64,000 nt of DNA from Candidatus Iainarchaeum sp. (GCA_017609985.1 JAFCCW010000002.1:590-64589); one strand, 5' to 3'. Counted from the stretch's first letter, positions 5,337 through 10,717 are shown. Numbers and translations are program-made. Notes: generated by a model not told the origin, from the letters alone.

Positions 5337-5411
5337 TGCCCCGGGCGGGATTCGAACCCGCGTCACAGCCTTGAGAGGGCTGGATGCTTGGCCGGGCTAC
5401 ACTACCGGGGC
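5337..5411 (-). tRNA. tRNA-Glu (anticodon CUC)
   Basis: Reverse complement: gccccgg-ta-gtgt-agcccggccaa-gcat-c-cagcc-CTCTCAA-ggctg-tgacg-cgggt-tcgaatc-ccgcccggggc-a. The cloverleaf was folded by hand. Confidence 0.88.
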
Positions 5412-8474: not shown

Positions 8475-8529
8475 GTTAAAACAATTTCATTCAAAAAAAG
8501 CTTTTAAGGGAATAGTTTTTCTCGGAACT

Positions 8530-9756
8530 TTATTGCTTAAGAAACTCACTCAATTTTTTTAAAGAAACACTCTTCTGCTTCCCAGTTTTTAAGTCCTTCA
8601 CAGTAATTTCTTTTTTCTTCAGTTCGTCTTCGCCAAGTATTCCCACAAGCTGGATTCCCTTTCTGTCAGCATAGGCAATGTTTTTGCTTATTCCTCTTCC
8701 AATCAAATCAGTTTCAACATTAATTCCTTTGCTTCTCAGTTCTTCAGCAATCCCAATTGCTTCTTTGCCTGCCTTGTCACCCAAAGGGATAATAAAAATC
8801 TTCAAACTGCTTTCAAGCTTTTTTCCTTGAAGTACATCCACCAGCCGGTCAACCCCAAAAGAAATTCCAATAGCTGGAGTTGCTTGCCCGCCATAAGCTT
8901 CAATCAATTTATCATATCTTCCGCCTCCGCCAATGCTTGGGCCGTTCTCTGAAGCAATCTCAAAAACAGTTCCAGTGTAGTACTCTAACCCTCTTGCAAG
9001 TGTCAAGTCAAGCTCAACAAATTTATTCAGCTTCTGTTCTTTCAACAGTGAAAAAAGCTCTTCAATTTCTTCTGCTCCTCTGCAGTTTGACAGGCATGAT
9101 GCATTATTTTTCTTCACTGTTTGCATGAATTCAATCGGAATTTTTTCCTTCTTTAATTCTTCTTCAACTCCTTCCCACCCAATCTTGTCCAGCTTGTCAA
9201 TTGCCCTGAAAGCATTCTTTACCTTGTCTTTTTTTACTCCACTTTCAAGAGCAATGTCTTCCAGCAGCTTTCTGTTGTTAACCCTTATCTTAAATTCAAT
9301 TCCAAGTTCCTGCAGGATTCTCACAGAAATTGCGAGCAGTTCAAATTCTGCTTCAATTCCACTTACTCCAAACACATCAATATCCGCCTGAGTGAATTCT
9401 CTGTATCTCTGCTTCTGCGGTCTGTCATATCTGTACACGCGTCCAATTTGGTATCTCTTAAACGGTCTTCCTAACTGCTGGTTTTCTGCAACAACTCGCG
9501 CAGTCGGCACAGTCAAGTCAAACCTTAAACCAAGCTCTCTGCCAGACTTGTCCTTAAAATAGTATATTTCGTCCTTGATTGCTTCTCCTCCGCTTCCCTT
9601 CTTTGCAAGCAGTTTGAATTCCTCTACTGCCGGAGTCTGCAGGGGAACAAAGCCATATGCCTTGAACCATTTCTCACAAACCTGTTCCACCCAGCGCTTT
9701 AGCTCTGCTTTTTCTGGGAGAAAATCCCTCATTCCGCGAACCGTACTGTACTTCAT
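8530..9756 (-). CDS. hisS: histidine--tRNA ligase
   Basis: RGMRDFLP at the N-terminus, class II motif 2 YRYDRPQKQRYREFTQ, and motif 3 GGGRYD. GGTGAT lies upstream of the ATG. Confidence 0.95.
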   Translation of the reverse strand: MKYSTVRGMRDFLPEKAELKRWVEQVCEKWFKAYGFVPLQTPAVEEFKLLAKKGSGGEAIKDEIYYFKDKSGRELGLRFDLTVPTARVVAENQQLGRPFKRYQIGRVYRYDRPQKQRYREFTQADIDVFGVSGIEAEFELLAISVRILQELGIEFKIRVNNRKLLEDIALESGVKKDKVKNAFRAIDKLDKIGWEGVEEELKKEKIPIEFMQTVKKNNASCLSNCRGAEEIEELFSLLKEQKLNKFVELDLTLARGLEYYTGTVFEIASENGPSIGGGGRYDKLIEAYGGQATPAIGISFGVDRLVDVLQGKKLESSLKIFIIPLGDKAGKEAIGIAEELRSKGINVETDLIGRGISKNIAYADRKGIQLVGILGEDELKKKEITVKDLKTGKQKSVSLKKLSEFLKQ

Positions 9757-9767
9757 TCTATCACCAA

Positions 9768-9838
9768 TACTGTGGAGCGGGCTTGAACCGCTATTCTTCC
9801 CTTCACAGGAGAAGCGTCTGACATTGACTTACCACAGT
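9768..9838 (-). tRNA. tRNA-His-like cloverleaf (anticodon GUG) 11 nt upstream of hisS; an atypical or pseudo tRNA, or a leader mimic
   Basis: Reverse complement: (t)actgtgg-ta-agtc-aatgtca-gacg-c-ttctc-CTGTGAA-gggaa-gaat-agcgg-ttcaagc-ccgct-ccacagt-a. The T-arm and anticodon arm are good. The acceptor stem extends to 8 bp through U-1:A73. The D-stem has only 3 pairs and the D-loop lacks G18G19. Confidence 0.45.
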
Positions 9839-9873
9839 AAATAGAAGGGAAAATGGAATAAAAGGATTTGTTT

Positions 9874-9990
9874 TTAGCAATCTCTTTTATTTTTGATTCC
9901 TTGTTCAATAAAAAGAGCAATTTCTCTAGGCGTATAATAGCCATGAAGTGATTCCCCTTCTGTATTCTTGTTTATATTCAATTTATTCAA
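9874..9990 (-). CDS. candidate small ORF (38 aa)
   Basis: A strong GGAGGTG Shine-Dalgarno sequence (9996-10002, minus strand) lies 5 nt before a TTG start. Translation: MNKLNINKNTEGESLHGYYTPREIALFIEQGIKNKRDC. It is too short for the ORF track and has no homology evidence. Confidence 0.25.
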   Translation of the reverse strand: MNKLNINKNTEGESLHGYYTPREIALFIEQGIKNKRDC

Positions 9991-10143
9991 TTTAACACCT
10001 CCGTGTTTTCTCTATTTTTATTTCTATTTTTGAAATTTTCAGAATTAGTCAGGCAAAGCAATTCATCAATACTGTGGATGAAGGCATTCACCATTGTTTA
10101 ACTGAAAAATATCTGTTTTTTTGCTGCCTTTTTGGAAGCGAGT

Positions 10144-10211
10144 CCCCTGCAGGGGGCGAGTGCGGGCAAAATCTTCGATTTTGCTGCACCACAAAATCCC
10201 GCGGATTTTGT
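10144..10211. repeat. cluster of three short palindromes/hairpins directly downstream of tRNA-His
   Basis: CCCCTGCAGGGG (10144-10155). GCAAAATC-ttc-GATTTTGC (10166-10184). ACAAAATCC-cgc-GGATTTTGT (10191-10211). The last two share the core AAAATC/GATTTT. Confidence 0.5.
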
Positions 10212-10232
10212 TCGTGCTCCGAAAAAGGCAAA

Positions 10233-10347
10233 GGCCGGCGCCGGGAATCGGACCCGGCTCCCAGGATAACTGCAACGCTTTCTTTTCTGTGAACTCTTTG
10301 AAAAAGTTCCCACAGTCCTGGATCTTAACCACTAGACCACGCCAGCC
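10233..10347 (-). tRNA. tRNA-His (anticodon GUG) with encoded G-1, C73 and a canonical 37/38 intron (~42 nt, 10268-10309)
   Basis: Reverse complement: g-gctggcg-tg-gtct-agtggtta-agat-c-cagga-CTGTGG[intron]A-tcctg-ggag-ccggg-tccgatt-cccgg-cgccggc-c. G-1 opposite C73 is the HisRS identity hallmark. Confidence 0.85.
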
Positions 10348-10555
10348 ATTTATGTACTTATATGTATAGCTTTTGTTTAAATTCCATTCTCCTAAAAAAT
10401 TGTATTTATTTGTATATTTATAAGAAGCAGTATTGCTTTTATTCGTCTTCTGTTTCTTCTTCGCCACAACCGCCACATCCTGGACAGCCGTGAAGTAACT
10501 CACCTATCATAACATAATCTATGGACTGGTTTGTTTAAATACTTTGCCTTGGGGG

Positions 10556-10717
10556 CTACAGAAGCCTGTGAATAGGCTTTTTTGTCTTTTTGTGCTTTGC
10601 TTGAAATCCAGGTCCTGTTTTTCGTCTTATTTCCTGACCTTCAATAACTTTATAGTCTCGCGGCCTAACTTTTCTTGCTGGAGCTCCGCCAACTTTTTTT
10701 CTTCGAACTTGAGACAT
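10556..10717 (-). CDS. candidate small basic protein (53 aa)
   Basis: ATG ORF below the track cutoff: MSQVRRKKVGGAPARKVRPRDYKVIEGQEIRRKTGPGFQAKHKKTKKPIHRLL. It is very basic, with a composition like a ribosomal or nucleic-acid-binding protein. Family not recognised. Confidence 0.4.
   Translation of the reverse strand: MSQVRRKKVGGAPARKVRPRDYKVIEGQEIRRKTGPGFQAKHKKTKKPIHRLL

Follow-up and report, generated by a model that had tools for sequence, protein, structure and literature searches.

Why should a tRNA gene, or something very close to one, stand directly in front of the gene for the synthetase that charges the same tRNA? This question is raised by a stretch of 64,000 nucleotides (nt) from Candidatus Iainarchaeum sp. 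(GCA_017609985.1 JAFCCW010000002.1:590-64589), hereafter the window, where a cloverleaf of the tRNA-His type (9768-9839, minus strand) precedes hisS, the gene for histidyl-tRNA synthetase (HisRS, 408 amino acids (aa), 8530-9756, minus strand). An earlier note on this DNA had offered two explanations i.e., a mimic of tRNA-His in the hisS leader that serves autoregulation, or a degenerate tRNA gene that is co-transcribed with hisS and then cleaved off. From the analysis described here, the element is probably, and we say so with modest confidence, a genuine although non-canonical tRNA-His-type gene, degenerate or foreign, that would form one transcription unit with hisS and would be cut out of the transcript by the enzymes that process tRNA ends.

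The tRNA-His-type element

The element comprises 71 nt from +1 to position 73 (9838-9768), preceded by U-1 (9839), and it was accepted by both ARAGORN and the Rfam tRNA model. ARAGORN reported a tRNA-His(GTG) at 9767-9839 on the minus strand, with an acceptor helix of 8 base pairs (bp) that extends through U-1 (9839):A73 (9768). When 9768-9838 (minus strand) was aligned end to end with positions 1-71 of Rfam RF00005, the score was 48.3 bits (E = 5.5e-9 in a 1.2-kb search), well above the gathering score of 29 bits; the default gathering pass over the whole window missed the element, presumably because of its speed filters. The minimum free energy (MFE) fold of the isolated RNA is also a cloverleaf (-28.2 kcal/mol, z = -2.8), so that both programs and the fold agree with the structure that the earlier note had drawn by hand. 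When the ARAGORN threshold was titrated, this locus and the canonical tRNA-His were still called at up to 105% of the default and the remaining tRNAs of the window at up to 110-125%, and no false positive persisted beyond 90%. The element is a tRNA-type sequence far beyond what chance would produce.

The acceptor stem (ACUGUGG/CCACAGU) has seven of seven Watson-Crick pairs, and the T arm (AGCGG-UUCAAGC-CCGCU, with the loop at 9787-9781) has five of five T-stem pairs and a canonical T loop; these two arms, which are the parts read by RNase P, tRNase Z and the CCA enzyme, are flawless. The anticodon GTG (9806-9804) lies in a loop of 7 nt (CUGUGAA), and this loop together with the potential 8-bp acceptor helix is the combination seen in canonical tRNA-His; the variable loop has 4 nt. 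Of the invariant tRNA nucleotides, U8, A14, A21, U33, G53:C61, T54-Psi55-C56 and A58 are all present, and A15:U48 is found as well. The departures are concentrated in two places. One of them is the D arm, which has three pairs and a D loop (AAUGUCA, 9825-9819) without G18G19, as was noticed before, and to which an A10/G25 mismatch must now be added; the other is the end of the acceptor helix, where U-1:A73 takes the place of the G-1:C73 pair encoded by canonical tRNA-His genes of archaea and bacteria. The G+C content of the element is 51%, compared with 55-69% for most other tRNAs of the window, with the intron-containing tRNA-Met also at 51%.

A canonical tRNA-His(GUG) is encoded nearby on the same strand (10233-10347; 10232-10347 in ARAGORN with introns, and also detected with Rfam). 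As had been stated, it shows an encoded G-1 (10347), C73 and an intron, which is of 42 nt (about 10267-10309). On the Rfam model, which treats the intron as an insertion, it obtains 40.1 bits; the scores are 43.6-72.8 bits for the remaining tRNAs of the window, and 49.8, 57.3 and 58.3 bits for the canonical tRNA-His genes of three relatives. Given the scores of these last genes, a general covariance model cannot tell the element from a genuine tRNA-His; the comparison of the two loci that the earlier note had proposed therefore placed the element well above the cut-off but was unable to separate it from an ordinary tRNA-His. The idea that the element is a recent duplicate was rejected, since its identity to the canonical tRNA-His (51%) and to the other tRNAs of the window (52-69%) is no higher than that between unrelated tRNAs.

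The canonical gene has peculiarities of its own. It is the orthologue of the tRNA-His found upstream of the his block in relatives, but its intron is not present in the orthologues of the relatives L011, L012 and L016, and its T loop reads UCCGAUU, with C where U or Psi55 is universal (the relatives have UUCAAUU, UUCGACU and UUCGAGU). This C55 could be a real change or an assembly error. Because the element lacks G18G19 and the canonical gene carries C55, both tRNA-His-type genes of the window appear, from their sequences, to be defective in the contacts between D loop and T loop that form the elbow. The G-1:C73 pair is kept in the four canonical tRNA-His genes examined (4/4).

Evidence for a probable shared transcription unit

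The spacer between A73 and the hisS start codon (ATG at 9756-9754) is UUGGUGAUAGA, 11 nt on the minus strand (9757-9767), which is the distance previously reported. It holds a Shine-Dalgarno-like sequence, GGUGAU (9765-9760), and neither an oligo-T terminator nor space for a promoter; relatives carry GGAGUGAU at this position. Runs of T follow most tRNA genes of the window, but none follows the element. With a spacer of 11 nt that contains only the Shine-Dalgarno sequence, and without oligo-T behind the element, co-transcription of the element and hisS is the expected outcome, and both would belong to a single transcription unit. Since 11 nt are too short for a promoter, that of hisS must lie within the element or upstream of it. 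Many genes of the window look leaderless, with an AAAGC-TTAA motif similar to the B recognition element (BRE) and TATA box about 25-39 nt before the start; hisS has a Shine-Dalgarno sequence, as in the relatives where it is an internal or the last gene of an operon, and its mRNA must therefore carry a leader of at least about 10 nt. Downstream, a run of seven T (8493-8499, minus strand), 30 nt past the hisS stop codon, is the likely terminator of the unit.

A promoter-like box, AATCCTTTTATTCC (9855-9868, minus strand), has its 5' edge at -30 from +1 and is a weak candidate for a promoter of the element itself. A matrix trained on the window's own upstream sequences gave the box (AATCCTTTTATT) a score of 4.5, near the 99.3rd percentile, a result that is weak and not decisive; the genes for tRNA-Thr(UGU) and tRNA-Thr(GGU) show a box at the same position with a similar score. 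Stronger promoter-like boxes are found about 190-200 nt upstream of the element (10030-10039), ahead of an open reading frame (ORF) of 38 codons. As a separate observation, in front of three tRNA genes (at 5411, 10346 and 15010, minus strand), those for tRNA-Glu, tRNA-Leu and the canonical tRNA-His, the 5' edge of a motif AAAG(N)C-T(T/A)(A/T)A stands at a constant -27/-28 relative to the mature 5' end; the motif also occurs 24-39 nt before many ORF starts. This fixed spacing is not common to the other tRNAs of the window, and recalls the strict promoter placement of the leaderless tRNAs in Nanoarchaeum.

Gene order around hisS in related archaea

The HisRS of the window is closest to proteins of uncultivated DPANN archaea (Diapherotrites, Iainarchaeum or Micrarchaeota where named), and its N-terminus aligns with theirs. 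Only three relatives exceed 60% identity i.e., P0003 (99%), P0001 (85%) and P0002 (82%). Whether an equivalent structure precedes hisS in relatives was a check suggested by the earlier note, and the answer is negative: a tRNA or tRNA-like sequence directly upstream of hisS was found in none of seven distinct relatives (ARAGORN with introns; Rfam at E up to 0.01), and the only other copy belongs to a near-identical strain in which the element has suffered an indel. In six of the seven relatives hisS comes after histidine biosynthesis genes. In those with 82-85% identity, hisG ends 5-33 nt before hisS and no tRNA-like sequence is present; among those with 58-60% identity, hisS and the gene before it share 4 nt in L010, L011 and L012, and in L014 hisS starts 33 nt after hisG. 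In this latter group a tRNA-Thr(GGU) follows hisS and rpiA lies further downstream, with intervening genes in L011, L014 and L016.

The upstream side is also recognizable. In the DNA fetched, a tRNA-His was present in three relatives (L011, L012 and L016), exclusively of the G-1:C73 type; in L011 and L012 it immediately precedes the his block, and TrkH and TrkA are found further upstream in L012 and L016. In L016 an Asp/Glu racemase gene occupies the place of the his genes, again with the tRNA-His before it. The order that recurs in these DPANN archaea (L010, L011, L012, L014 and L016 compared) is tRNA-His, his genes, hisS, tRNA-Thr(GGU) and rpiA. The window presents the same frame, namely M24 peptidase, TrkH, TrkA, tRNA-His, hisS, tRNA-Thr and rpiA, without his genes, and the gap from tRNA-His to hisS is only about 475 nt, including the element. 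This stretch does not significantly resemble the his genes or spacers of the relatives, nor any other part of the window; blastn and tblastx of 9757-10240 against the his genes of the relatives gave marginal matches only, the best with E = 0.003 over 66 nt. Since the flanking genes are retained and the his genes are not, the element appears to occupy the scar of a his operon that was lost in this lineage, with the ancestral tRNA-His gene on one side and hisS on the other. This evolutionary context, as judged from gene order, was missed by the earlier note. The arrangement in L016 suggests that the his genes were lost at least twice independently. Upstream of hisS, similarity to the leader of the relatives ends at about -18, where the leader meets the element.

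As a side observation on the his genes, hisG of the relative L001 (85% identity; 950-1595) appears as two ORFs of 131 and 93 aa that overlap; this suggests a frameshift, due either to decay of his genes in that lineage or to a sequencing error.

The second copy of the element comes from the relative with 99% identity (L004, the same contig as L019; GCA_017607905.1), which is essentially the same strain, with two substitutions and one indel in about 2.9 kb, scaffold gap aside. The element was found only in the window and in this assembly, and a look-up of exact proteins (HisRS, TrkA and RpiA) for further copies of the same species returned only this short contig. The element thus seems to be lineage-specific and confined to this species-level lineage. 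In L004, U30 of the anticodon stem (9810 in the window) is deleted, which leaves a stem of 5 bp and a loop of 6 nt and spares the acceptor and T arms; ARAGORN reports it as 'tRNA-???' and its Rfam score is 41.6 bits.

Proposed formation of the hisS 5' end

What stands in the sequence is an intact acceptor stem and T arm that abut an mRNA of the same strand, 11 nt from its ATG and with no terminator between, which is the configuration that characterizes a t-element. The structure, spacing, lineage restriction and synteny of the element are direct observations; its co-transcription, its processing and the loss of decoding function are deductions from them. In the proposed sequence of events, a promoter at about -30 of the element, one further upstream, or both would drive transcription of the element together with hisS. 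The tRNA end-processing enzymes would recognize the minihelix formed by the intact acceptor and T arms, so that tRNase Z would cut after A73 and RNase P at +1 or -1. The cut after A73 would leave an hisS mRNA starting with 5'-UUGGUGAUAGAAUG..., a leader of 11 nt that contains the Shine-Dalgarno sequence. The element would in this manner act as a t-element that donates a promoter and a 5' end to an hisS gene stranded by the loss of its operon. The excised RNA would probably be a poor or non-functional tRNA, because it lacks G-1, C73 and G18G19 and because the sister strain tolerates an indel in it.

The stretch that replaces the his operon

The remainder of the stretch of about 475 nt that stands in place of the his operon (9840-10232, minus strand) contains a GC-rich structured segment (10125-10230) and the 38-codon ORF (9874-9990), together with one copy of a direct repeat. 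The proximal copy of this 16-nt repeat, TCCACAGTATTGGTGA (9761-9776, minus strand), runs from the last base of the T stem through the 3' strand of the acceptor and A73 into 7 nt of the hisS leader, and thus takes in both the element's 3' end and a portion of the Shine-Dalgarno sequence; the distal copy, TCCACAGTATTGATGA (10063-10078, minus strand), lies 302 nt upstream. The two copies (TCCACAGTATTGRTGA) match at 15 of 16 positions, a result reached in 10 of 300 composition-matched Markov simulations (p about 0.03). The repeat may be a recombination scar, possibly att-like. Neither an integrase, a transposase nor terminal inverted repeats were detected in the 302-nt interval. An att site of an integrative element at a tRNA gene was considered and rejected: the interval is only 302 nt long, it has no integrase ORF, the partial copy is 5' of the tRNA and the flanks are in conserved synteny. 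The repeat was likewise rejected as a remnant of a second tRNA-like copy, as there is no similarity outside it (p = 0.95). A weak match to the C/D-box small RNA sR5 of Rfam (10044-10097, minus strand; 14.9 bits, E = 1.3) overlaps the distal copy; it shows UGAUGA and CUGA boxes but a degenerate C box (AUGGUGA), and is probably not significant.

The 38-codon ORF, MNKLNINKNTEGESLHGYYTPREIALFIEQGIKNKRDC (9874-9990, minus strand), is preceded by a strong Shine-Dalgarno sequence, GGAGGUG, and by the promoter-like boxes at 10030-10039 described above. By eye it bears some likeness to HisG of L001; nevertheless, BLASTP, Pfam and NCBIfam give nothing, and the notion of a relic of the N-terminus of HisG is unsupported. 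Directly 3' of the canonical tRNA-His, the segment 10125-10230 (minus strand) folds into a GC-rich multibranch structure (MFE -48.1 kcal/mol, z = -3.2), in which a closing stem of 14 bp (GCCUUUUUC.GGAGC / GCUUC.CAAAAAGGC) surrounds three hairpins. It has no match in Rfam or among viral contigs and is absent from the relatives, where only 70-95 nt separate the tRNA-His from the next gene; it may represent an undescribed small RNA or part of a mobile element.

Searches for the element elsewhere required exact loop sequences or at least 65-70% identity, so that diverged relatives could escape them. Under these conditions, patterns anchored on the D arm plus anticodon loop, on the three loops or on the 3' half had no match in IMG/VR, and blastn against phage and plasmid collections had no match to the element either. 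Across the 185,579 species genomes of GTDB only chance matches were obtained (two hits in Ruminococcus are coding DNA and not tRNA), and the three matches in JGI metagenomes are all chance hairpins. These searches give no sign of a family, of a viral or plasmid source or of a multicopy element. At a distance from this locus, the minus strand of the window also carries four giant tandem ORFs (25053-60455) of 2329, 2515, 2663 and 3374 aa.

Alternative explanations

Several points weigh against the processing of a degenerate tRNA-type gene fused to hisS. The transcription start site, the read-through and the cleavage are all reasoned from sequence; the -30 box is weak, and A/T-rich boxes are common in a genome of 40% G+C and in its A/T-rich spacer DNA. 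No more than 1.5 bits separate the element from a true tRNA-His gene found in a relative (49.8), and the perfectly paired stems and many conserved invariant nucleotides of the element fit a young or still-selected tRNA equally well. The deletion in L004 could be an assembly error, and with two near-identical copies only, a covariation test is impossible. A first alternative is that the element is a functional additional tRNA-His isodecoder whose identity set is unusual (the 8-bp helix closed by U-1:A73); it may compensate for the intron-bearing, C55-containing canonical gene, and its position next to hisS would be a by-product of rearrangement. Its 48.3 bits are within the range of genuine tRNA-His genes (40.1 for that of the window, 49.8-58.3 for those of relatives), every stem but the D stem is perfect, the variable loop of 4 nt is that of canonical tRNA-His genes, and the U-1:A73 pair could make RNase P retain the -1 nucleotide. 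In addition, HisRS of Nanoarchaeum equitans, also a DPANN archaeon, mainly needs the 5'-phosphate of the -1 nucleotide and tolerates a change of G-1 to A (about 2-fold) or of C73 to A (about 1.5-fold) (PMC10100707), and the canonical gene is itself odd in its C55 and in an intron that relatives do not have. However, such a tRNA would have to work with a low G+C content, an A10/G25 mismatch and no G18G19, and without the G-1 and C73 kept in all four canonical genes of the clade (4/4); it is absent from all seven relatives, three of which show only the G-1:C73 type in the DNA fetched, and in the sister strain its anticodon loop is reduced to 6 nt. The enzyme argues in the same direction. In HisRS of E. 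coli, Q and R of the motif-2 loop contact C73 and G-1 (PMC10100707); both residues are retained in the window, where the loop (RPQKQRYR) is the same as in the relatives with 82-85% identity. Within the DNA fetched, relatives with this unchanged loop show G-1:C73 tRNA-His only, and deletion of G-1 caused a 24- to 740-fold loss in the HisRS enzymes tested (PMC10100707; PMC3064791). A functional isodecoder is consequently unlikely, although it deserves to be kept in mind.

At the opposite extreme, the element could be an inert relic i.e., a tRNA pseudogene or a mobile-element fragment caught in the deletion or rearrangement, with hisS expressed by read-through or from a fortuitous promoter and with the repeat as an insertion scar. 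Its presence in one lineage only, the absence of homologues in the collections searched, the 15/16 repeat that takes in its 3' end, the indel of the sister strain and the fact that it duplicates no tRNA of the window would all agree with this. Yet three of its four stems are still intact with a G+C content well above that of the surrounding spacer, neither an integrase nor a transposase nor a terminal inverted repeat was seen in the 302-nt interval, and the element would inescapably be part of the hisS transcription unit, from which at least a passive role in the formation of the 5' end is likely; we regard complete inertness as improbable. The autoregulatory mimic is, in our judgment, slightly less probable still. 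It would bind free HisRS next to the Shine-Dalgarno sequence and thereby repress translation or alter processing, with uncharged tRNA-His as a competitor; the lineage would have recruited a tRNA-His-shaped, HisRS-bound leader after losing the his operon, and the amount of HisRS would depend on how the leader and uncharged tRNA-His compete for the enzyme, a scenario to which we give very little weight. What speaks for it is the cognate pairing of a GUG anticodon with hisS, a Shine-Dalgarno sequence and AUG within 11 nt of the structure, and the loss of an operon context that might have tied hisS to histidine supply. There is also a precedent in yeast, where translation of the HisRS mRNA is repressed by the enzyme itself through binding to a GUG anticodon mimic that this mRNA contains (Levi and Arava 2019, PMC6542539), and an innovation of this lineage is conceivable. 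Nevertheless, the structure is not conserved upstream of hisS (0/7 relatives); the anticodon is present but the main acceptor-end determinants of HisRS, G-1 and C73, are missing (PMC10100707, PMC3064791); the sole natural variant disrupts the anticodon loop; and a tRNase Z cut after A73 would detach the structure from the mRNA. A pairing between leader and trailer that would hide the Shine-Dalgarno sequence, suggested by the fold, was dropped as it is no stronger than in shuffled sequences. The coincidence of a tRNA-His and hisS is also a weaker argument than it seems, given that synteny of tRNA-His, the his operon and hisS is ancestral in the clade, so that His-related genes cluster at this site anyway.

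From the two proposals of the earlier note, therefore, that of a degenerate tRNA gene co-transcribed with hisS and cleaved from it fits best with a spacer that holds only a Shine-Dalgarno sequence, the lack of oligo-T, the intact acceptor and T arms and the -30 box, while that of an autoregulatory mimic is left unsupported by the relatives, the missing G-1 and C73 and the L004 indel.

Comparison with known systems

RNase P and tRNase Z cleave tRNA-like elements of Haloferax (PMC4946936), and in plant mitochondria the ends of mRNAs are set by t-elements (PMC1920247). The element of the window resembles the t-elements of Haloferax volcanii and plant mitochondria, and mitochondrial tRNA punctuation, in that a cloverleaf or a minihelix of acceptor and T arm lies directly beside an mRNA of the same strand. 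It differs from the known t-elements in that it is almost a full tRNA, has an anticodon cognate to the synthetase encoded directly downstream and is found in a DPANN archaeon, and in that its cleavage is predicted. The E. coli thrS operator, a mimic of the tRNA-Thr anticodon arm bound by threonyl-tRNA synthetase (ThrRS), is the classic case of mimicry in a synthetase gene. As in that operator, a tRNA-like structure cognate to the synthetase is found immediately 5' of the ribosome-binding site of its gene; in contrast, the thrS operator mimics the part that ThrRS recognizes and is conserved among relatives, whereas the element, a whole cloverleaf that would probably be excised, has neither G-1 nor C73 and precedes hisS in none of the seven relatives. 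The yeast gene, HTS1, shares with the window the enzyme family and a GUG anticodon-like loop in its own transcript; however, in HTS1 an anticodon-like hairpin is located inside the mRNA and its binding was shown experimentally, while in the window the putative mimic is a whole tRNA-type gene that lies upstream.

T-box riboswitches, which regulate bacterial aminoacyl-tRNA synthetase genes including hisS, also tie the expression of such genes to the cognate tRNA through a leader RNA. They bind the tRNA by a specifier codon and the T-box or antiterminator and, unlike the element, do not resemble a tRNA; T-boxes are not known in archaea, and an Rfam search of 9400-10600 with E up to 10 gave no T-box match. 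A GUG tRNA with A73 and without an encoded G-1 recalls the A73/U72 tRNA-His of α-proteobacteria and that of some protists. In the clades without G-1, that tRNA-His is the sole one and HisRS has co-evolved with it (PMC3064791), which differs from the window, where the element stands beside a canonical G-1:C73 gene and HisRS keeps an unchanged motif-2 loop. A low-G+C, lineage-restricted copy of a tRNA with a direct repeat of its 3' end nearby is also reminiscent of tRNA pseudogenes and att duplications; in this case, unlike in att duplications, there is no integrase or element body, and the partial repeat is upstream of the tRNA and only 302 nt away.

Significance of the locus

In kind, the element belongs to classes already known, as a non-canonical tRNA gene confined to one lineage or a tRNA-like processing signal, fused in either case to an mRNA. 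If it were merely a decaying pseudogene, the interest would be local only, and if a mimic, it would be the first archaeal aminoacyl-tRNA synthetase autoregulated by tRNA mimicry, caught at or near its origin; the locus in any case bears on whether any archaeal synthetase regulates itself in this way. It also offers a natural U-1:A73 variant beside a canonical gene, which bears on the dependence of HisRS and RNase P of DPANN archaea on G-1:C73. If the element is indeed a degenerate tRNA-type gene processed like a t-element, it would represent a natural gene rescue in the course of genome reduction, where an hisS stranded by the loss of its operon regained a promoter and a defined 5' end by fusion to a tRNA-type gene, and the maturation of mRNAs by tRNA punctuation, as seen in organelles and Haloferax, would be extended to the DPANN archaea.

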